Below are positions 1 through 8,001 of a stretch of 8,277 nt of DNA, one piece after another. Position numbers and translations under genes: made by a program. Origin of the DNA: a virus (Duplodnaviria > Heunggongvirae > Uroviricota > Caudoviricetes); the IMG/VR virus record IMGVR_UViG_2740892421_000006. One strand, written 5' to 3'. The notes below the pieces were generated by a model. It worked only from the letters and a program-made list of their open reading frames with translations, was not told the origin of the DNA and did not search any database. Within the stretch, counting starts at the first letter, position 1, and each line of letters starts with the position of its first letter.

Positions 1-1170
1 GCAGCTGCACGTATCGGTCGAATGACATTATTTTTAACAACCCGCTCTGTTCTGATGTTTCAAATGGCCGAAAACTTCCAGAGATCCATCGACTACCGCG
101 CCGAAAATGGCGAACCGTGGTTAAAAGACCAAAAGGTTGGAGTCATTGGCTCTGGTGAGTTCCAGGTATCACGACATATCAACGTCGCTACAGTTCAAAC
201 TCTGGCAAGTTTCCTTGAAGAACCACCACGCGATGCAACTCCAGATAAGAAGAACTACCACCTCAAACGTCGGGACTTGGTGAAACGCTTCCTTTCAAGT
301 GTGTCTCTGCTTATTCTGGAAGAGGCGCATGAGTCTTCAGGTTCTAATTTCTATGACATTGCCAGATTATGTGTGAACGCAGACTATCGTCTGGCGCTTA
401 CGGCCACGCCGTTCATGAAGGATTCTACAGAAGCCAACATGCGTCTGATGGCTGTGGCCGGGCGAATTGAAATTAAAGTCACAGAAAAGTACCTGATTGA
501 TCGAGGCATTCTGGCAAAACCATACTTCCTTTATCATAAAGTTGCCTACAAGCCGGACGAGGCCAGAATCAAGGCAGAACTTGCCAACAAACACCTCAAT
601 TTTAGAGTAGGTATGAGCACTGCCTACCAAAAGGCTTATCAGTTGGGGATCGTGTATAATTTGGGACGTAATGAGGCCATTGTTCGCGAAGCATTGCTCT
701 ATAAGCAACATTCTCTCAATTGTATGACTCTGGTTCGTCTTAAACGCCACGGGCAAATCCTGATGGAAATGATGAAAGAGTCCGGCCTTAGAGTTGACTT
801 CATTTATGGGGAATCGAACCAGTCGACAAGGCAAGCAAAGCTGAACAGTTTAGCGTCTGGTGAAATAGATGTTTTAATAGGCTCGACTATTCTGGATGTT
901 GGTGTTGATGTGCCAAGCGTTGGTGCGGTCATTCTTGCTGGTGGTGGGAAAGCAGAAGTTGAAATGAGACAGCGTGTCGGTCGTGGCTTACGAGCCAAGA
1001 AGAATCAGGCAAACGTGTGTTTTATCACTGATTTCATTGACACTAGCAACAAATACCTGTTGTCTCACTCTTATGAGCGAAAACACATCATCGACACCAC
1101 ACCTGGCTTTGCGGAAGGTGTATTGCCTATTGATGGCGCATTCGATTTTGGAATTCTGAAACGAGATTAG
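1..1170 (+). CDS. SF2 helicase (DExH-type), C-terminal ~390 codons; 5' end upstream of window
   Basis: Frame is open from nt 1 (ORF track M at 22). Motif II variant LILEEAHE at 310-333, motif III LTATP near 400, motif IV-V region (STILDVGVDVP) and motif VI QRVGRGLR at 970-993. No Walker A in window, so the N-terminal domain must lie upstream. Stop TAG 1168-1170. Confidence 0.75.
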   Translation, partial: AAARIGRMTLFLTTRSVLMFQMAENFQRSIDYRAENGEPWLKDQKVGVIGSGEFQVSRHINVATVQTLASFLEEPPRDATPDKKNYHLKRRDLVKRFLSSVSLLILEEAHESSGSNFYDIARLCVNADYRLALTATPFMKDSTEANMRLMAVAGRIEIKVTEKYLIDRGILAKPYFLYHKVAYKPDEARIKAELANKHLNFRVGMSTAYQKAYQLGIVYNLGRNEAIVREALLYKQHSLNCMTLVRLKRHGQILMEMMKESGLRVDFIYGESNQSTRQAKLNSLASGEIDVLIGSTILDVGVDVPSVGAVILAGGGKAEVEMRQRVGRGLRAKKNQANVCFITDFIDTSNKYLLSHSYERKHIIDTTPGFAEGVLPIDGAFDFGILKRD

Positions 1171-1172
1171 TT

Positions 1173-1451
1173 ATGAGCGAAAAAAAAACAACTTATTGCC
1201 AAGTGGCATTGTCTGATAAGGCCAATGAAAAACTTGGAAAATTTCAAATAAAACTCAAAGAGAAAAAAATTAAGATGTCTAAGGCTGAAGTTATCAATGC
1301 CATTCTGGAGACGATGACTATGGCTGAATTTGACAAAGTCACATCTGCCGTTGGGGTTTCCGCTAAGACGCGTGAGAAAATCATGCGCATCTATGAAAAC
1401 TCCAATATGACAAAAAAAGATTTAGAGGAAATACTGAGCAGGTTGCCGTAA
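1173..1451 (+). CDS. hypothetical small protein (92 aa), translationally coupled to helicase
   Basis: ATG 2 nt after the helicase stop; lysine-rich helical-looking protein; contains a 9-A homopolymer at 1180-1188 in codons 3-5. Function unknown. Confidence 0.55.
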   Translation: MSEKKTTYCQVALSDKANEKLGKFQIKLKEKKIKMSKAEVINAILETMTMAEFDKVTSAVGVSAKTREKIMRIYENSNMTKKDLEEILSRLP

Positions 1452-1483
1452 CATTTTATATTTACCCCCTATCTACTAATTCT

Positions 1484-1518
1484 ATGATGTGCTCACTTGT
1501 TAGAAAGGAGCACATCAT
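1484..1518 (+). promoter_or_regulatory. RBS/start-codon sequestering stem-loop
   Basis: Perfect 11-bp inverted repeat atgatgtgctc (1484-1494) / gagcacatcat (1508-1518) with a 13-nt loop; the 3' arm contains the SD (aaggag 1505-1510) and the AT of the ATG at 1517. Confidence 0.5.
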
Positions 1519-2083
1519 GAGTTGGTTAAAAGAATTATCATTTGTTGACACCACTGGCGCTAAGAAAAATCATTCTTTCTGGAAAGTCAGCGATCCTTCT
1601 GATTTTCTTGTTGGCGCTAATGCTGCTTTTGAATTGCTTAACTTTTATCAACGTTATCCTGAAATGAAACACAGTCCACTCCTGTACAGAATAACAAACG
1701 ATATGAATAGGTCTGGTTTATTATCAAGTGAGTCAGCGAAAGGCTTTTTTAGCAAAATTACGCCACATATATCATTCGATGCTGCAAACGAAATTGATTA
1801 TCTATCCACGAAACCTCAAGAACAATTATCTGTACCACCTGAGAAAAAAGAAAGACGAATTGCCAGCATTGAAAATATATCGAAAGAGCTTCGCACAACA
1901 ACGTTGAGGCTGCTGAACTTTCTTACGCTACTAAATTGGATAGATGATCAAACATTGATTCCATCAACCGATGCGTTGGATAACAGAGTCCTTAGGCTGA
2001 ACAAAAAATCGCAATTTGGTTTTGTGTTCACCAAAAAAGGTGAAGATTTAATCAAAAGAAAATATAGATTATTGAATGATTAA
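1517..2083 (+). CDS. hypothetical protein (188 aa from ATG 1517; ORF track start 1484)
   Basis: Strong SD aaggag 6 nt upstream of ATG 1517; the ORF-track start at 1484 lies inside the hairpin arm and lacks an SD. Stop TAA 2081-2083. No recognisable motifs. Confidence 0.6.
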   Translation: MSWLKELSFVDTTGAKKNHSFWKVSDPSDFLVGANAAFELLNFYQRYPEMKHSPLLYRITNDMNRSGLLSSESAKGFFSKITPHISFDAANEIDYLSTKPQEQLSVPPEKKERRIASIENISKELRTTTLRLLNFLTLLNWIDDQTLIPSTDALDNRVLRLNKKSQFGFVFTKKGEDLIKRKYRLLND

Positions 2084-2090
2084 TAGTCTA

Positions 2091-2138
2091 CATGCAGGTG
2101 TATGAGAGCACCTGCATGTGACATTCGTCACGTTTTTT
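2091..2138 (+). terminator. Rho-independent terminator
   Basis: Perfect 10-bp stem catgcaggtg (2091-2100) / cacctgcatg (2109-2118), 8-nt loop, then small hairpin tgac-attc-gtca and T-run cgttttttg to 2138; sits 8 nt after the stop of the 188-aa gene. Confidence 0.7.
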
Positions 2139-2223
2139 GAAACATATACCTCCGGCTGAAAAAAGATCTTGATTGGCTGAACGATATTTGTAGGCTTACC
2201 TATGTTTAGAACCGGAGGCATGA

Positions 2224-2772
2224 ATGGGTCACTTACCTTTTGATAAGAGATTTTTAAGTGCAAAGGAAATAAAGGACTGTGTGGATTTTTATCATAAAAA
2301 AAATAAACAGAAATCTTGCTTAGAAAACCCTAGACACCTAACTTCTTCTCAAAAAGAAGAGCACAAACTAATACAATACAGGTTAAAGACTTCACGTAAA
2401 GATCGTTATGAACACTATATATACGTGAAAGATATTGAAGGCACCAGGACAAATTGCGGAGTAGTCTTTTATCCTTTTGATATAACAAAAATGTTCGCTA
2501 TTATGGACTCCTGTGATGGCGTGGCCCCTGGAAAATTGGAGTTGCATTCAAATTTATACACTTATCCCAGTGCTCGGAAATGGATAAGAGATAGCACGTC
2601 ACCCTATGGTTTTTCTTTTCTTTTCAAAAATCATCTGGCATTAAAAAATTTTATCGAAAAATACAACAACTGCATATCATCAGGTGAATTAAGTTTCGAC
2701 AAAGTCTGTAAAAACATAAAAAGAGATGACCTCTTAAAAGATATTTACAACAGAACTCAGAAGAGCATGTAG
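2224..2772 (+). CDS. hypothetical protein (182 aa)
   Basis: SD ggagg about 6 nt upstream of ATG 2224; AT-rich; stop TAG 2770-2772. No recognisable motifs. Confidence 0.6.
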   Translation: MGHLPFDKRFLSAKEIKDCVDFYHKKNKQKSCLENPRHLTSSQKEEHKLIQYRLKTSRKDRYEHYIYVKDIEGTRTNCGVVFYPFDITKMFAIMDSCDGVAPGKLELHSNLYTYPSARKWIRDSTSPYGFSFLFKNHLALKNFIEKYNNCISSGELSFDKVCKNIKRDDLLKDIYNRTQKSM

Positions 2773-2799
2773 CCACTCACTAATCATAGTCAATCAAAT

Positions 2800-3219
2800 A
2801 TGAAAGCAAAAAACTTAATGATTCTAATGCTAACCACGTCACTAATTGGGTGTTCGTCTTCGTCTATATCTATTTCAAAGGCAAAGGATGCACCTCAAAG
2901 CAGAATATTTAAATATCAAACACTACATGAGTCTAGTCTAACAATAGTTCGAGACAAAGGGCTGGTTGGTTCTGCATGTAACGCTTCCATTTTCATCAAT
3001 GGAGAAACGGCTGCAAAGCTAGAACCTGGTGAAAAAGCAACTTTCTACCTTAACGAAGGAGAGTGGATCGTTGGGACATCAATTGAAAGTTCAGGTCTTT
3101 GCGCATTTAACCCCTCCAGGATGGAACGAGAAATAAAGCTAAAGCAGGGCGACTCGAAAACATATCGGGTTTTCACTACCTGGGATGGTACAATGGACAT
3201 ATTGCCAACCACTTTATAA
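2800..3219 (+). CDS. putative lipoprotein (139 aa), predicted outer-membrane sorted
   Basis: N-terminus MKAKNLMILMLTTSLIGCSSSS: hydrophobic h-region plus lipobox L-I-G-C; residue +2 after Cys is Ser (no Lol avoidance Asp). Stop TAA 3217-3219. Confidence 0.65.
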   Translation: MKAKNLMILMLTTSLIGCSSSSISISKAKDAPQSRIFKYQTLHESSLTIVRDKGLVGSACNASIFINGETAAKLEPGEKATFYLNEGEWIVGTSIESSGLCAFNPSRMEREIKLKQGDSKTYRVFTTWDGTMDILPTTL

Positions 3220-3748
3220 TGATATGACGACGAAAGATATCACCTACGGCATACCGGCTGAAGTATGGCCGCGAGACTACGAACATGCTGAACGCACCTT
3301 GCTCTTCTGGCGGAGAGCTAAATTTCCTGTAAGAGTCACTCTCGAAGACGGCCAAGTGTTTTGCATGTACGTTTATGGTCTCATGTCATCTCGTAACAAA
3401 GTTGACCTTTGTCCAACTCCATTTGACAAAGAAAATCGTATAAGGCTCCCACTTGAGCGCATTAGCACAATTGAATCAGGCGTAATTGATGGCATTGATT
3501 ACGATTTCAAAGGGAGACTAACAATACACCCTGACTATGTAGACAACCAGCCATCACGTCGTGACTTTTTTAAGATATGTCGCAAGGCTTATCAAAACGG
3601 CCAATCTATAAGGGTCTACATGGCAGACGGCCGCGAAATTGAGGGAACGTCAGATGGCGTTGATGCCTGCCTAGTCACACTTAAGTTGAACGACGGCAGA
3701 AAAATTCTTGTTTTCTTCGATTGGGTTGAACGAATTTTACCTTTTTGA
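3185..3748 (+). CDS. hypothetical protein with internal tandem repeat, possibly Rof/YaeO-like; start uncertain (3185 or 3224)
   Basis: Long ORF; the alternative ATG at 3224 lies 5 nt after the lipoprotein stop. Two similar segments (VRVTLEDGQ...NRIRLPLERISTIE and VTLKLNDGRKILVFFDWVERI). By memory the first resembles E. coli Rof (LTLELKDGE...SRKNVEY...RELRLDKITS); not verified. Confidence 0.55.
   Translation: MVQWTYCQPLYNDMTTKDITYGIPAEVWPRDYEHAERTLLFWRRAKFPVRVTLEDGQVFCMYVYGLMSSRNKVDLCPTPFDKENRIRLPLERISTIESGVIDGIDYDFKGRLTIHPDYVDNQPSRRDFFKICRKAYQNGQSIRVYMADGREIEGTSDGVDACLVTLKLNDGRKILVFFDWVERILPF
3692..3748. repeat. direct repeat copy 1 (3' end of the 187-aa gene)
   Basis: gacggcagaaaaattcttgttttcttcgatt... 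is ~93% identical to 4058-4114; this copy encodes the C-terminal DGRKILVFFDWVERILPF. Confidence 0.85.
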
Positions 3749-3751
3749 GTT

Positions 3752-4048
3752 ATGAAATCGATACTATTGACATCATTATTTTTAGTTTACTCAATTTCAG
3801 CCAATGCAAAGGATGATATTGCAATTATTAAGTCGCTGATGCATGACGTATGCTCAACGTCTCAGAATATTCCAGTTTGTATGTTTCAACTTTCAGCAGC
3901 AGTAAAACTAGGGATAAACATAGGTAAGACCGCTCAACTATGTGAACAGGTGGAAAATTATGAACCATGTGAATTGAACAACTCTTCATTGCTGTTCGTT
4001 GATGCGCTTTTTGACACCAATCGTAAGGCTGTAGAGTCAGTCCGATAA
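3752..4048 (+). CDS. small secreted 4-Cys protein (98 aa), paralog A
   Basis: Signal peptide MKSILLTSLFLVYSISANA with AxA-type cleavage site; mature part has Cys at 34, 43, 64, 73 (C-x8-C-x20-C-x8-C). Stop TAA 4046-4048. Confidence 0.6.
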   Translation: MKSILLTSLFLVYSISANAKDDIAIIKSLMHDVCSTSQNIPVCMFQLSAAVKLGINIGKTAQLCEQVENYEPCELNNSSLLFVDALFDTNRKAVESVR

Positions 4049-4057
4049 ATGTATGAA

Positions 4058-4114
4058 GACGGCAGAAAAATTCTTGTTTTCTTCGATTTGGTTGACCGAA
4101 TTTTACCGTTTTAG
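4058..4114. repeat. direct repeat copy 2 with 21-codon gene remnant
   Basis: Near-identical to 3692-3748; retains a remnant reading frame ATG 4049 ... TAG 4112-4114 encoding MYEDGRKILVFFDLVDRILPF, i.e. a duplicated 3' end of the 187-aa gene. Confidence 0.85.
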
Positions 4115-4123
4115 GATATTGAT

Positions 4124-4423
4124 ATGAAAACTGTAGCAGCATTCACATTCTTAACTTTCATTTTTAGCTCTTCCGCATTTCCTCAAGAAAATAGCATTGA
4201 ACGAGTGCAACGTGTCTCTACAGAGTTGTGTTCAAAGGCGGAAGACTACGATTTGTGCATGTTAGACCTAAGCATGGCTTTAGGCGCTGCATATCAAGAT
4301 GGACTGATCGTTGCGGGATGCAAGTTGGGACTTGATGAGCCTTCGAAAGACAAATGCGAAAACTCGGAGCGTTTTCAGGAATATATAATAAAAGAAATCA
4401 GGAACTATGCAAAAAAGATGTAA
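4124..4423 (+). CDS. small secreted 4-Cys protein (99 aa), paralog B
   Basis: SD agga 7 nt upstream; signal peptide MKTVAAFTFLTFIFSSSAF; Cys at 36, 45, 66, 78 (C-x8-C-x20-C-x11-C), the same spacing class as paralog A, including the shared C-x8-C-M-x2-L-S motif. Confidence 0.6.
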   Translation: MKTVAAFTFLTFIFSSSAFPQENSIERVQRVSTELCSKAEDYDLCMLDLSMALGAAYQDGLIVAGCKLGLDEPSKDKCENSERFQEYIIKEIRNYAKKM

Positions 4424-4438
4424 ATTCCTATAAGGGTA

Positions 4439-4468
4439 ATAACCGGCTAAGTCCGGTTATTATTTTAC
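4439..4468 (+). terminator. Rho-independent terminator
   Basis: 8-bp stem ataaccgg (4439-4446) / ccggttat (4453-4460), loop ctaagt, then tattttac; 16 nt after the stop of paralog B. Confidence 0.65.
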
Positions 4469-4599
4469 ATGCCATTCGTTTAACACTCATTCAATTCTCC
4501 CCCGTATAAATATATATAAGGTCAAAAGCCGGAATTTATTATTTATTTAGGGAACACCTTCGACGATCTAACTTTTATTTCTAGGACTTTCATCCCTGC

Positions 4600-4647
4600 A
4601 AAAAAACTTAAAAAAACACTTGCAATCTTTTTTCGCGTATCGATAAT
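4600..4647 (+). promoter_or_regulatory. sigma70-like promoter with A-tract UP element
   Basis: A-rich tract aaaaaaacttaaaaaaacac (4600-4619), -35 ttgcaa (4620-4625), 16-bp spacer, -10 gataat (4642-4647); about 60 nt upstream of ATG 4707. Confidence 0.45.
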
Positions 4648-4706
4648 TGGACTCATCGAAAGCGAAATCGCTAACGACAATTAAATTTATACTAAGGATT
4701 GAAATC

Positions 4707-5357
4707 ATGGCTAACATTATCATTTCTAAAAAATCCATCATTGAAGCTGCTGCCATTGTATCCGACGAGCTGCGCGAAAAAGCAGATCTGGCAACTCAAA
4801 CATATAACGAACATTATAAAAATGGTACGCACACAAAAGCAGACAGAGCTAACATGCTTGCAGCGTCTACCAAACTAGCATACTTCACCAACAACGTTTT
4901 AAACGCTGTTAATGATGAGAAATTAGCTGGTGTCTTTTACTACGCGATCAAAGCAAGTAAACAAGCGCCAGAAGTATTTTTCCGTGATGCAATGACTAAT
5001 AGTTATTCACTGGAAAAACTGGTCTATCTGGTTAAATCAATTAAAGCTGGTAAATGCGTTTATTCCATCGCTGATATGTCAGGATCTCGTGTATTTGCTT
5101 TAATCGATATGATTAACGACGAGATCGACACGTTCACCAATGGCGCTGTTTTCGATTTAATGAATGAAGCTAAAAAAGCGTGCGAAATTAAATTGGACGC
5201 TGGCTATACTCAAGCCAACCAGTTGATCAATCTTTGCGAACGTCTTGGACTTGTTGAGAAAGTCAAAGGAATGGGAAGCGCAAAAGCTGGTACGCAGCAA
5301 TATCGCTTTATTAAAAATGATTTCTATAACTATCTGGCTGATGCTTTCAAAGCGTAA
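4707..5357 (+). CDS. hypothetical protein (216 aa)
   Basis: SD aagga (4694-4698) 8 nt before ATG 4707 (MANIIISKK...); the ORF-track start at 4647 lies inside the predicted promoter and has no SD. Stop TAA 5355-5357. No signal peptide and no recognisable motifs. Confidence 0.7.
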   Translation: MANIIISKKSIIEAAAIVSDELREKADLATQTYNEHYKNGTHTKADRANMLAASTKLAYFTNNVLNAVNDEKLAGVFYYAIKASKQAPEVFFRDAMTNSYSLEKLVYLVKSIKAGKCVYSIADMSGSRVFALIDMINDEIDTFTNGAVFDLMNEAKKACEIKLDAGYTQANQLINLCERLGLVEKVKGMGSAKAGTQQYRFIKNDFYNYLADAFKA

Positions 5358-5370
5358 TTAATGGAATCTT

Positions 5371-5391
5371 GCGCCCACTATGGGCGCTTTT
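5371..5391 (+). terminator. intercistronic hairpin (partial terminator/attenuator)
   Basis: gcgccca-cta-tgggcgc followed by only tttt, then immediately the SD aaggag (5392-5397) of the next gene; the same stem sequence as the terminator at 5641-5665. Confidence 0.5.
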
Positions 5392-5404
5392 AAGGAGCTT
5401 AATC

Positions 5405-5635
5405 ATGTTTATTCTTATCGCTGGCGTTAACGTGCGCAATGAATATTTTGTTAATCGCATCGCTGGGATCGCTGGTTACGCTGGGCGCGCAGTCGAGTTT
5501 ATCGATGAAACGACGCGCAAAATTGACTTATTGAGCGACCAGGAGCGAAAAAAAGCAGACGTGAATGACGCTGATATATTTTTAATGTTGAAAGCGTTTG
5601 TAGAAATGGGATTCAAAATTAGTTTACACAAATAA
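5405..5635 (+). CDS. hypothetical small protein (76 aa)
   Basis: SD aaggag 7 nt upstream of ATG 5405 (MFILIAGVNVR...); the ORF-track start at 5369 falls within the upstream hairpin. Stop TAA 5633-5635. Confidence 0.55.
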   Translation: MFILIAGVNVRNEYFVNRIAGIAGYAGRAVEFIDETTRKIDLLSDQERKKADVNDADIFLMLKAFVEMGFKISLHK

Positions 5636-5640
5636 AATCG

Positions 5641-5665
5641 AGCGCCCACTATGGGCGCTTTTTTC
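5641..5665 (+). terminator. Rho-independent terminator
   Basis: Stem agcgccca (5641-5648) / tgggcgct (5652-5659), 3-nt loop, then a T6 run; 6 nt after the stop of the 76-aa gene. Confidence 0.75.
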
Positions 5666-5685
5666 GTTTCCAATACTCCCACCAT

Positions 5686-5712
5686 AACGCGCCATCATTG
5701 GCGCGTTTTTTA
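5686..5712 (+). terminator. second (tandem) Rho-independent terminator
   Basis: 8-bp GC-rich stem aacgcgcc (5686-5693) / ggcgcgtt (5700-5707), loop atcatt, then ttttttatt. Confidence 0.7.
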
Positions 5713-5980
5713 TTGTCTTTAACTCGCTCCAACAACATAAAAATAAGCACCAAAATAACGCCATAGACGCACTTTTATATCCTTACCAGTACATACCCAT
5801 TACTTAACACATTAACGCGCTTAAAACGCGTTATATTGCGCTATAGAGTATGGTTAATCATTGGCTTTTAGTCTTGCTATGTGATCCGCGTTTATTTGTC
5901 GGCGCGGATCGGTTCTTTGTGTTGTTTTGTATCCGCTCGCGTATTATGTGCGCGTGATTTTTCACATAATCACACCACTT

Positions 5981-5996
5981 AATCACATATGTGATT
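5981..5996. promoter_or_regulatory. perfect 16-bp palindrome AATCACATATGTGATT (candidate operator)
   Basis: Exact dyad symmetry; sits in a cluster of TCACA/TGTGA pentamers (5954-5996) within a noncoding region. Confidence 0.35.
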
Positions 5997-6125
5997 ACGC
6001 TACGAAAGAAATCTGGATGTCTCAGGCGACGAAAGTCATCATAATTTTCCCCGCTCACCTGTCCGACAACCGCTGGTTGGATTCCACCAGCTTCCCGATG
6101 TTTTTTCTACATAAAGGCGAATGCA

Positions 6126-6238
6126 GCCGTTTCCCGAAAAAATCCTGGCCGTTTCCCGTCGGCTCATGAATACGTTCCTCGCCGTTTCTGAAAATTTCCC
6201 TGAGGCAGCTGGTGTCTATAGAGAAAGGGCCGTTTCTG
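6126..6238. repeat. four direct repeats of GCCGTTTC(C/T)(C/T)G
   Basis: Copies at 6126-6136, 6148-6158, 6181-6190 and 6229-6238, with spacings of 22, 33 and 48 bp, in an otherwise noncoding stretch. Confidence 0.6.
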
Positions 6239-6249
6239 GCCCTCTTCTC
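6221..6249 (-). terminator. putative terminator hairpin of the minus-strand gene block
   Basis: Inverted repeat agggcc (6226-6231) / ggccct (6238-6243), extendable with gagaa/ttctc; lies 3 nt downstream (minus sense) of the 160-aa gene stop; the U-tract is only moderate. Confidence 0.4.
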
Positions 6250-6251
6250 AG

Positions 6252-6734
6252 TTACACGCCATCAAGGATGTGGATGCGGTTGCTTGCGTATACATTCAGC
6301 ATAAAGTTAGCGCAAAACAGTTTCCATGTATCAACGCCAGCGGTATACGTAATGTTTTTGCATTTAATTGCATTGTTGGCGATCCGCATCCCCTGCGATA
6401 CTGCTTCATCGTCGGAAAATTTGAACGACGATTGAGTTTTAATCCAGACAGAAATCTGCGTAGCGAACTCAATCAGCTTGGACTGGCAGAATCGCCCGGA
6501 GCGCACCGGAAAGACGAACGTTCCGAATCCAGAATTTACCACATACGCTTTCTCAAATACCCGCGAGTAACGACGATTGCCAATGATGTCGCGTGCAATA
6601 ATGCATTTTTCTTGTGCTGACAGTTCTACCGTCTCATTGTCGCGCCATGCACCAAGTACTCGTTTTTCAATGTCAGAGAACGTTACAGCGATATTGCCAT
6701 GTGCGGGTGCGTTTACAGTAGCGATAAAATTCAT
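6252..6734 (-). CDS. hypothetical protein (160 aa)
   Basis: Minus-strand ORF with SD aagga 7 nt upstream of ATG (6732-6734); stop TAA 6252-6254. No recognisable motifs. Confidence 0.55.
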   Translation of the reverse strand: MNFIATVNAPAHGNIAVTFSDIEKRVLGAWRDNETVELSAQEKCIIARDIIGNRRYSRVFEKAYVVNSGFGTFVFPVRSGRFCQSKLIEFATQISVWIKTQSSFKFSDDEAVSQGMRIANNAIKCKNITYTAGVDTWKLFCANFMLNVYASNRIHILDGV

Positions 6735-6855
6735 GATTAATTCCTTATCGTAAATAACAAATTGTTTCTTGTTGTTGTTAATTATCGTTGTACGAATAAG
6801 GCGTCAAAGTGGAAAGTTGCGGTAGCCGGACGGGAACAGGTGGGTTTGTCGGTTG

Positions 6856-6932
6856 CCTGGAGGTAAGAGGTTGGTGTTTTTAGCCTGCGGGAAACAGGAT
6901 GGTCATTTAAGGCCACCAATGCTGATGGCCTT
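6856..6932. repeat. cassette-flanking repeat, left copy (hairpin-forming)
   Basis: ctggaggtaaga ... ggtcatttaaggccaccaatgctgatggcctt; the core matches 7967-8001 with 3 substitutions; lies immediately 3' (minus sense) of the 310-aa gene stop (TGA 6937-6939). Confidence 0.8.
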
Positions 6933-6936
6933 GTTT

Positions 6937-7869
6937 TCAACTGGAATAAGAATAATCTGTATTGATGAGTAAAGGCGCATCATCCACTAATCCTGACAGA
7001 AACCAGCGAGCAGTCCCGTAAAGTTCAAGGGCGTCAAGATAGCCTTCATGCAGTGCACCAACCCCAAACACATCATTATCAGCCATAGCTACCGCATCTA
7101 CGGCCAGATACTCTATGAGTTCTTCCATGCTTTTTATATTTATATCGTCTAAAATCTCCAGTTTGTTCTCAATCTCATTGAAAGGGATATCCGGCATCGA
7201 ATGCACTATGATTTTTGGCACATCATTCTCATTATTTACCTCCACAATAACAATTCCATACTCTGTAAAAAGAGAACTAAAGAATCTATTAAACTCTAAA
7301 TTAACAAAAGATGCCGAACCATTTAAACGCTCAACATATGGGGAACGAAAAGCTGAATGTAAATTATTTTTTCTACTTTCCTTGCCATATTCTATAATCA
7401 ACTCTTTATTTTTGATCTTCTCGAGTATTCCACCTAGCTCCTCTACAATTAAAGCGCCAGTGTTTTCTCTTTCTTTTGATACTATAGTTGAAAGACTGAT
7501 CAAGGCTTCTGTTATACTGTTATTAGAAACGATCAGATGAAATAGCTCCAGCATAGCCAATCGACCACTATCAGTGAACGTAACAAAGTTTATTGCATCT
7601 ATTTCATTTTTAATCGCAAGAAACTCACATTTATTTTTGATGTTTTCCCGAATTGACATCTCCACACGCTGTCTTATTCTCAACACCTGCTTAAAGTAAG
7701 TATTTTCAAAACATTCGACAGAAAATGTCTTCTTACCATCATTCACAATAGCCAATCTGTATTCACATTCAAGACCATTAAGTTCAAGGCAATCACAGTC
7801 ATATTGGGACCCATCTTTAACTGAAAACAATTCACTAATGTCAATTTGTCCCAAAAATACTGGTTTCAT
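6937..7869 (-). CDS. hypothetical protein (310 aa), AT-rich cassette gene
   Basis: Minus-strand ORF with SD agga upstream of ATG (7867-7869); appears markedly more AT-rich than flanking DNA; bracketed by the two repeat copies. No recognisable catalytic motifs. Confidence 0.65.
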   Translation of the reverse strand: MKPVFLGQIDISELFSVKDGSQYDCDCLELNGLECEYRLAIVNDGKKTFSVECFENTYFKQVLRIRQRVEMSIRENIKNKCEFLAIKNEIDAINFVTFTDSGRLAMLELFHLIVSNNSITEALISLSTIVSKERENTGALIVEELGGILEKIKNKELIIEYGKESRKNNLHSAFRSPYVERLNGSASFVNLEFNRFFSSLFTEYGIVIVEVNNENDVPKIIVHSMPDIPFNEIENKLEILDDINIKSMEELIEYLAVDAVAMADNDVFGVGALHEGYLDALELYGTARWFLSGLVDDAPLLINTDYSYSS

Positions 7870-7949
7870 TTTTAATTCCTCGTTTGTTTTCGATGTGATA
7901 ATTATCGCTGAATGAAATAGGCTAAAAAGAAGATTTGTAAGGCAACTAT

Positions 7950-8001
7950 CTGGAAGTAAGGCAAAGGGTGGTCATTTAAGACCACCAATGCTGGTGGCCT
8001 T
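7950..8001. repeat. cassette-flanking repeat, right copy (tandem hairpins, contains Chi octamer)
   Basis: ctggaagtaagg ... ggtggtc-atttaa-gaccacc (7967-7986) overlapping ccacca-atgc-tggtgg (7982-7997); GCTGGTGG at 7990-7997. Relative to the left copy it lacks an ~18-22-bp internal segment. Confidence 0.8.

Follow-up and report, generated by a model that had tools for sequence, protein, structure and literature searches.

The locus

The stretch of DNA analysed here (the window, 8,277 nt, one strand read 5' to 3') is the Caudoviricetes record IMGVR_UViG_2740892421_000006, and our subject is a two-unit arrangement near its middle: a gene for an FljA-like regulator, two small genes for predicted exported proteins, p98 and p99, and a direct repeat that places a copy of the fljA 3' end immediately before each small gene. 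Judging from the matches of the window to Salmonella phage SSU5, Escherichia phage Cyrano and Klebsiella phage-plasmids, it belongs to an SSU5-like phage-plasmid, one of E. coli. The features that define the arrangement are as follows.

3224-3748, plus strand: fljA-like gene (PF03614 Flag1_repress, E 3.2e-80; phrog_1444, E 1e-97)
3692-3753, plus strand: repeat copy 1, the functional fljA 3' end (codons for DGRKILVFFDWVERILPF, stop TGA at 3746-3748) with the first spacer bases
3752-4048, plus strand: p98, encoding a 98-aa protein with a signal peptide and four cysteines (phrog_9536, E 3.5e-27)
4049-4054, plus strand: ATGTAT, with which the native sequence downstream of p98 ends, by comparison with the p98-only loci L014, L040 and L066
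4055-4114, plus strand: repeat copy 2, a displaced 60-nt fljA 3' fragment of the fljA-p99-type allele, stop TAG at 4112-4114
4113-4123, plus strand: putative p99 translation-initiation region, AGGA at 4113-4116 overlapping the remnant stop, then a spacer to the ATG
4124-4423, plus strand: p99, encoding a 99-aa protein with a signal peptide and four cysteines (phrog_27673, E 4e-62)
4432-4467, plus strand: right boundary of the variable slot, AAGGG and an intrinsic-terminator-like hairpin (stem 4436-4446 / 4453-4463) with a short T run

A repeat search of the window aligned 3692-3753 with 4058-4119 (62 nt, 56 of them identical, or 90%, at a spacing of 366 bp) as the only outstanding direct repeat reported, and a binomial estimate places its chance expectation across the window at about 5e-19. 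Over the 57 nt that a first-pass annotation of this DNA had described as repeated, identity is 52/57 (91%), or 51/54 (94%) when the stops are excluded; the differences comprise three in sense codons together with the differing stops, TGA and TAG. Against other fljA alleles, the homology of copy 2 extends 3 nt more to the left, to 4055 (GAA GAC). The remnant frame claimed by that annotation is present as well, extending for 21 codons from the ATG at 4049 to the TAG at 4114 and reading MYEDGRKILVFFDLVDRILPF, as are the 98-aa and 99-aa open reading frames (ORFs) with their signal sequences and common four-cysteine framework. Alignment likewise upholds the contrast it had drawn between repeat and cargo, since the repeat is 91% identical and the coding DNA of p98 and p99 only 40%. 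Its 187-aa gene ending in copy 1 exists as the longest ORF, from 3185, but not as the gene, for which the RefSeq start at 3224 yields 174 aa; the Pfam match of the 187-aa ORF starts at its residue 18.

A variable slot between fljA and its terminator

Our sample consisted of 57 related loci from viral and genome collections plus 11 annotated plasmid regions (L001 and L059-L068), and slot states were scored in the 53 viral and genome loci that reach the next conserved gene, which encodes a 236-aa protein (phrog_1513). The small gene is absent from 36 of these 53 loci, whereas eight carry a p98-type gene only, nine a p99-type gene only and none both; in the four loci obtained by a scan of genome contigs, the slot is empty in all four. 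With the two-unit plasmids added, the cargo behind the fljA end is thus found in every state from empty through p98-type or p99-type to both, as the first-pass annotation had anticipated. Because the boundary sequences match in empty and filled loci, the slot can be placed after the fljA stop codon and before the terminator hairpin at which the same-strand gene run ends. Empty loci read ..CCGTTT TAA and then ATCTATAAGGGTAATAACCGG or ATCTATAAGGGTAATAACCGGCTAAGTCCGGTTATT, with an exact boundary, and in filled loci TAA AT..TATAAGGG and the hairpin follow the stop of the small gene just as they follow the fljA stop in empty loci. The hairpin at 4436-4463 is the only terminator-like one between the fljA stop and the next gene at 4647, and its fold has a z score of -2.75, with 1 of 200 shuffles as stable.

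The two types of cargo are not confined to particular backbones. Genes of the p98 type and of the p99 type occur on near-identical Klebsiella-type backbones with the same FljA C-terminus (L044 versus L045), and both are also found on E. coli-type backbones. Immediately before p99-type genes, the p99-only loci L006 and L041/L044 read TAGGATATTGAT(A/G)TG, and L036 reads GATTTTGAT.

A single junction between two parental alleles

Plasmids with both units are rare, comprising 7 of 5,426 complete E. coli genomes (146 of which match 3640-4440 at all, hence 7/146) and 8 of 496 matching PLSDB records. The same junction is present in the five two-unit sequences inspected (the window, L001, L063, L067 and L068), where p98-TAA-ATGTAT passes directly into GAAGAC, that is, CCGATAAATGTAT abuts GAAGACGGC or, in longer form, GTCCGATAAATGTAT abuts GAAGACGGCAG. 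The novel junction therefore lies between 4054 and 4055, and because it is common to all five sequences, the two-unit form can be taken to have arisen in a single event.

Both sides of this junction have counterparts in plasmids with one small gene. The p98-only parents L066 (CP019283), L040 and L014 read p98-TAA-ATGTAT-AAGGGTAATAACC, the native sequence of AAGGG and terminator. In the p99-only parents L065 (CP027369) and L064 (AP039430), an intact fljA ending GAAGACGGCAGAAAAATTCTTGTTTTCTTCGATTGGGTTGAACGAATTTTACCGTTTTAG is followed by GATATTGAT and p99; the last 60 nt of this fljA and the spacer equal copy 2 save for two substitutions, and everything to the right of 4054/4055 is collinear with the p99 parent. 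The two substitutions in copy 2 are TGG to TTG (W to L, 4089) and GAA to GAC (E to D, 4096). Both the W and the E are invariant in 68/68 intact FljA C-termini, the final ten residues of which, FDWVERI(L/I)PF, are themselves invariant in all 68 proteins, while synonymous sites of the fljA end vary between lineages.

The two-unit plasmids also preserve the order in which copy 2 has degenerated. L063 (CP062854) has the E to D change only and the window clade has both, so the remnant is decaying stepwise. Since copy 2 gains substitutions at invariant FljA residues, one at a time, it is a decaying scar and not a maintained element, and purifying selection on the C-terminus of FljA in each parent, together with the recency of the event, accounts for the high identity of the repeat. 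A part in p99 expression is plausible only for the last few bases of copy 2 (TAG/AGGA). The plasmid that seems nearest to the original recombinant is L063: its p98 is one nucleotide apart from that of L066, the last 60 nt of its fljA are of the L066 type and its upstream backbone is L065-like.

Based upon these parental alleles, a simple course of events can be proposed. DNA ending 6 nt past the p98 stop would have been joined, without homology, to a resident fljA-p99 allele, entering it 60 nt before its stop codon, and a second crossover would have been homologous. The pathway may have been either homology-facilitated illegitimate recombination (HFIR) or an unequal illegitimate crossover between co-resident plasmids, and its product would be fljA, p98, the 60-nt fljA 3' fragment, p99 and the terminator, in that order. 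The fragment, freed from selection for FljA, would then decay, its last bases still supplying the p99 ribosome-binding site. We consider it probable, with good confidence, that one imprecise exchange stacked two alternative alleles in this manner, as ordinary phage mosaicism and with no dedicated swapping device.

Later mosaicism and transfer of cassettes

The window lineage is mosaic on both sides of p98. Its fljA is 99% identical to those of L059, L006 and L061 up to about 3706-3710 and from there, within copy 1, becomes L040-like (98%); further to the right, p99 is 100% and the next 215 nt are 98% identical to L006 and L059. Transfer of a cassette between more distant backbones is visible when the p99-only E. 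coli locus L064 is compared with the p99-only Klebsiella locus L062 in 40-nt windows. Identity is 55-85%, mostly 55-72%, over the last ~300 nt of fljA up to ~35 nt before its stop, 90-100% from that point across p99 and the whole terminator, and 28-78% in the intergenic sequence beyond it. Because a block of 90-100% identity lies between diverged flanks, a p99 cassette of ~390 bp can be taken to have passed between backbones of Klebsiella type and of E. coli type, its edges lying in the two conserved flanks. Cassettes would travel by homologous recombination, with arms provided by the terminator and by the conserved final 35-60 nt of fljA. The fljA end is conserved because the C-terminus of the FljA protein is constrained; it is a "handle" in a limited sense, a part that any conserved flank could play. 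We saw no recombinase, no attC-like structure and no recurrent junction, and nothing beyond ordinary homologous and illegitimate recombination is needed.

Several observations weigh against the single-exchange interpretation or complicate it. The junction was inspected in five, not all seven, of the two-unit E. coli records, and there is no microhomology at 4054/4055 that would point to one pathway. The empty slots could be ancestral or precise deletions. The p98 of the window clade differs from that of L063/L066 at 19/303 sites and copy 2 plus p99 at 3/377, and therefore at least one further exchange should have followed the founding event; with a p98-only plasmid as donor, homology at its right crossover would not have exceeded ~18 nt, and no single-cassette plasmid with the p98 allele of the window was found as a donor. 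Lastly, the predicted models of p98 and p99 are at most moderate (predicted local distance difference test, pLDDT, 71 and 57), and fold and sequence searches gave no match.

Alternative readings of the repeat

A more ambitious interpretation would regard the position behind fljA as a genuine exchange site for a small family of exported, disulfide-bonded proteins with rapid turnover, p98-type and p99-type as having distinct specificities and the two-unit array as an adaptive combination instead of a neutral scar. We regard this as unlikely. If it were true, the conserved fljA end and the terminator would be the favoured exchange arms, and p98 and p99, together with the FljA-like repressor and the lipoprotein encoded upstream, might alter the surface or the motility of the host while the plasmid-prophage is carried, an example of the effect being exclusion of flagellotropic or other superinfecting phages.

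It is quite unlikely that the fljA 3' end is a dedicated handle of an orphan array similar to those of Rhs and contact-dependent inhibition (CDI) systems, in which small genes are repeatedly captured, displaced ones form a reservoir and recombination at the handle switches expression. The topology, a 3' fragment with a displaced gene downstream, is identical to that of orphan modules, cargo differs among loci, the left edge of the exchanged p99 block falls within the final 35-60 nt of fljA and the later crossover in the window lineage lies inside copy 1. Against these parallels stand a single founding junction, present in 7/146 matching E. coli plasmids and 0/53 viral and genome loci, the absence of any array beyond two units, a left junction that is non-homologous and outside any handle, and the decay of copy 2 at invariant codons. 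Furthermore, both small genes probably share one transcription unit with neither silent, which would make switching needless, and FljA has no variable C-terminal domain to swap. The p99-only loci L059 and L006, which are close to the window and were considered as possible deletions between the repeats, are ruled out as products of an array, since at the fljA end they match either copy at only 87-88%. Of the first-pass proposal that the repeat is a recombination handle, what survives is the role of the fljA end, with the terminator, as a boundary of the p99 block (L064 versus L062); a maintained handle does not fit a single rare junction with a decaying copy 2. Its likeness to orphan toxin/immunity arrays similarly extends to the topology but not to the logic, as the FljA C-terminus is invariant and two thirds of loci lack a small gene.

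The first-pass annotation had also suggested a conserved expression signal, and a functional RNA or DNA element before each small gene (an mRNA operator bound by FljA, for example, or else a promoter or processing site) would be compatible with the RNA-binding, translational-repressor nature of FljA homologues such as the Salmonella protein, with the position of each copy directly before a small gene and with a weak sigma-70-like match inside copy 2 (4092-4120). The promoter-like matches in the region, however, number 9 versus 8.5 expected from shuffles and are thus at background, neither copy has RNA structure above shuffles (z +1.28 and -0.44), and an Rfam search gave no match at gathering scores. 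In single-cassette loci the same sequence is the plain coding end of fljA, with synonymous sites that vary freely, and copy 2 has accumulated two substitutions in 60 nt versus 2-5 in the 308 nt of p99, both counted against the same parent-type plasmids, so it is no more conserved than its cargo. A signal of this kind is very improbable, only the last bases of copy 2 being plausible in such a role.

Finally, an in-place tandem duplication of the fljA 3' end with a small gene, after which the genes diverged rapidly while selection or gene conversion kept the repeat, would account for units of nearly equal length (366-bp spacing) and for the homology of p98 and p99, but it is refuted by the single-cassette parental alleles and is barely credible, as each gene exists alone elsewhere (at 100% protein identity for p99 and 93% for p98), both types are old, internally diverse lineages (45-56% aa) found on near-identical Klebsiella-type backbones (L044 versus L045), and coding DNA that is 40% identical between p98 and p99 accompanies near-zero synonymous divergence between the window p99 and single-copy p99; the downstream-gene duplication put forward in the first pass is accordingly replaced by old alternative alleles joined through recombination.

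The p98 and p99 proteins

Both proteins start with Sec-type signal sequences, as read from the sequence, and share the framework C-x8-C-x20-C-x8/11-C, which is kept in all 20 distinct homologous ORFs collected. Their mutual homology is weak (BLASTP 27% over 60 aa, E 3e-5; 20/97 identical in a global alignment), each weakly matches the PHROG family of the other as well as phrog_21025, and phrog_9536 and phrog_27673 are both PHROGs without assigned function. Given the ratios of nonsynonymous to synonymous substitution (dN/dS, 0.08-0.29 for p98-type pairs and 0.20-0.77 for p99-type pairs) and the conserved cysteines, p98 and p99 are real genes under purifying selection. Amino acid identity within each type is 45-56%, and the two types are best described as old, strongly diverged alternative alleles of one family. 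The p99 protein is 100% identical in the p99-only loci L006 and L059, and the p98 protein is 93% identical to p98 from single-cassette plasmids.

The p98-type gene is unannotated in all five RefSeq records inspected, which were produced by the Prokaryotic Genome Annotation Pipeline and include L001 (at 6752-7048), L063, L066, L067 and L068. It appears to be a systematically missed gene, under purifying selection yet absent from the annotation of every one of these records. Lesions were encountered in p99: in L065 (NZ_CP027369, 1606-1905) the gene has an internal stop codon and is annotated as a 180-nt coding sequence, and in L068 (NZ_CP041426, 1985-2371) a frameshift near its end lengthens the protein to 128 aa. 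These lesions suggest relaxed selection on p99 in some hosts, which fits the dN/dS of 0.64-0.77 between close alleles.

Database comparisons contributed little to a functional assignment. Neither protein matched a family in our local Pfam copy (for p99 at E up to 0.1), although seven p99 homologues (85-99% identity) carry a precomputed label, PF26829.1, given by accession only. NCBIfam gave only a sub-threshold pectinesterase-inhibitor match, PADLOC no match and a sequence profile search of the PDB none at E up to 1. Structure prediction with AlphaFold2 gave a poor model for p99 (pLDDT 57) and a moderate one, with three helices, for p98 (pLDDT 71); Foldseek returned nothing below E 0.5 against the PDB and BFVD. 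The family is small, as a profile search of 1.84 billion representative proteins recovered five true clusters. Profile matches in polyketide synthases, mainly in regions of tandem carrier proteins, were rejected as spurious repeat matches, and a weak match to a eukaryotic protein with C-x8-C repeats was likewise taken as uninformative.

This small family of predicted exported proteins is found almost only in the slot behind fljA. We would tentatively, and with low confidence, suggest that p98 and p99 are periplasmic, disulfide-stabilised lysogenic-conversion (moron-like) proteins acting in the envelope and co-expressed with the lipoprotein and the FljA-like regulator.

Neighbouring genes and expression

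The gene directly upstream of fljA, on the same strand, encodes a lipoprotein.

2800-3219, plus strand: lipoprotein gene, 139 aa, lipobox LIGC (phrog_890 "lipoprotein", E 2e-50; weak DUF2846 match)

The fljA product matches PF03614 over its full length (profile positions 1-170 of 170, 268 bits against a gathering cut-off of 24) and, on this evidence, is homologous to the repressor that acts post-transcriptionally on phase-1 flagellin; the gene is labelled "transcriptional regulator" in NZ_CP075739. The ORF from 3185 shares 35 nt with the 3' end of the lipoprotein gene (stop 3217-3219), and the annotated start at 3224 is 4 nt past the lipoprotein stop. This short distance suggests translational coupling of fljA to the lipoprotein gene. 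Translation of p98 is likely to be coupled to fljA in turn, because its ATG lies 3 nt past the fljA stop and it lacks a clear Shine-Dalgarno sequence. By comparison, the AGGA that overlaps an fljA-type stop TAG is found in p99-only loci and is kept at the end of copy 2. The same-strand run would thus consist of the lipoprotein gene, the fljA-like gene, an optional small gene and then the conserved terminator hairpin. At the founding junction p98 would have lost its own terminator, and because of this loss fljA, p98, the remnant ORF and p99 are probably co-transcribed, as one transcript ending at 4436-4467.

The region between a 199-aa gene and fljA (2224-3184) is itself mosaic. The window has a 182-aa gene and the lipoprotein gene there, which are replaced by an opposite-strand gene of 801 nt in L059, L063 and L065 and of 438 nt in the Klebsiella locus L062.

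Genomic setting and other variable sites

The window matches plasmids of ~110 kb, in 245 E. coli records and 749 PLSDB records, which are mostly non-mobilizable and of IncFIB type and are hosted by E. coli, Klebsiella, Enterobacter, Yersinia and Salmonella. Its top plasmid match is pCPF6-IncFIB (L001), at 98.8% over window positions 1-6932. The SSU5 phage-plasmid group has been described (PMC7969092 and related papers), and our literature search returned this background only, with nothing on the present locus or on FljA homologues in phage-plasmids.

Two further sites of the window display comparable variability. In the first, which follows a similar logic, a 37-nt hairpin-containing repeat (92% identical) at 6896-6932 and 7965-8001 flanks a 310-aa gene on the minus strand (6937-7869). 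In L001 the 310-aa gene is missing and the vacant site contains just a single 37-mer; another gene occupies the position in L060 (pCP53-113k), and L061 agrees with the window in carrying the 310-aa gene. The upstream regions of the 310-aa gene and of a 160-aa gene (6252-6734) are alike (7865-7929 versus 6730-6809). At the second site, a 32-nt GC-rich hairpin with a T run (AAT..AATC..GCGCCCACTATGGGCGCTTTT, 88% identical) occurs at 5360-5391 and 5631-5662, bracketing an 88-aa ORF (5369-5635, phrog_1585), in whose position related plasmids such as L065, L066 and L068 have one or two small genes. This ORF may be another cassette, bounded by a duplicated terminator.

Comparison with known systems

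The parallel drawn most readily is with the orphan modules of rhs and cdiA loci, in which a fragment of the main-gene 3' end and the former small gene have been displaced by incoming DNA that recombined through homology in the main gene. The 60-nt fljA 3' fragment at 4055-4114 and an old small gene downstream of an intact pair closely resemble such a module. However, the main gene here is an FljA-type regulator with an invariant C-terminus and not a polymorphic toxin, and the small genes encode predicted exported proteins, absent from 36/53 loci, and not cognate immunity proteins; the present case, moreover, amounts to two units, one event and a decaying fragment. Integron-type cassette features are likewise lacking, as the repeat folds no better than shuffles and no integrase is present among the window proteins scanned.

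In Salmonella, FljA is an RNA-binding translational repressor encoded in the fljBA operon. The window gene is a full-length member of the FljA Pfam family (PF03614, E 3e-80), but it has no adjacent flagellin gene or hin invertase and is located on a phage-plasmid, behind a lipoprotein gene.

Phage morons, as described by Hendrix and colleagues, are accessory genes inserted between conserved genes, and the classical ones carry their own promoter and terminator. Like morons, the small genes are present or absent between conserved flanks with identical boundaries in collinear genomes, have no role in their conserved neighbours, are plausibly expressed in the prophage (plasmid) state and have been transferred horizontally, as a block, between diverged backbones. 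Unlike classical morons, the cassette has no promoter or terminator of its own: its ATG follows the fljA stop by 3 or 9 nt, the terminator belongs to the backbone, being present in empty loci too, and the cassette appears to rely on upstream transcription and on the fljA end for initiation.

HFIR was described for natural transformation in Acinetobacter and Streptococcus, with junctions usually at 3-8 nt of microhomology. The event proposed here shares with it one homologous end, one non-homologous junction and an insertion that duplicates part of the anchor, and it differs in that no microhomology is evident and that it would have taken place between phage-plasmids within a cell.

Altogether, the two-unit arrangement is the outcome of a known kind of event, combining phage mosaicism, moron exchange and a displaced 3' fragment, and it calls for no new mechanism. 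Its value lies in how well it can be followed. A precise variable slot is now defined in the widespread SSU5-like plasmids of E. coli, Klebsiella, Salmonella and Yersinia, and the locus offers a traceable instance of accessory-gene shuffling in phage-plasmids, with both parental alleles still circulating, one founding junction and a scar whose decay can be followed step by step.

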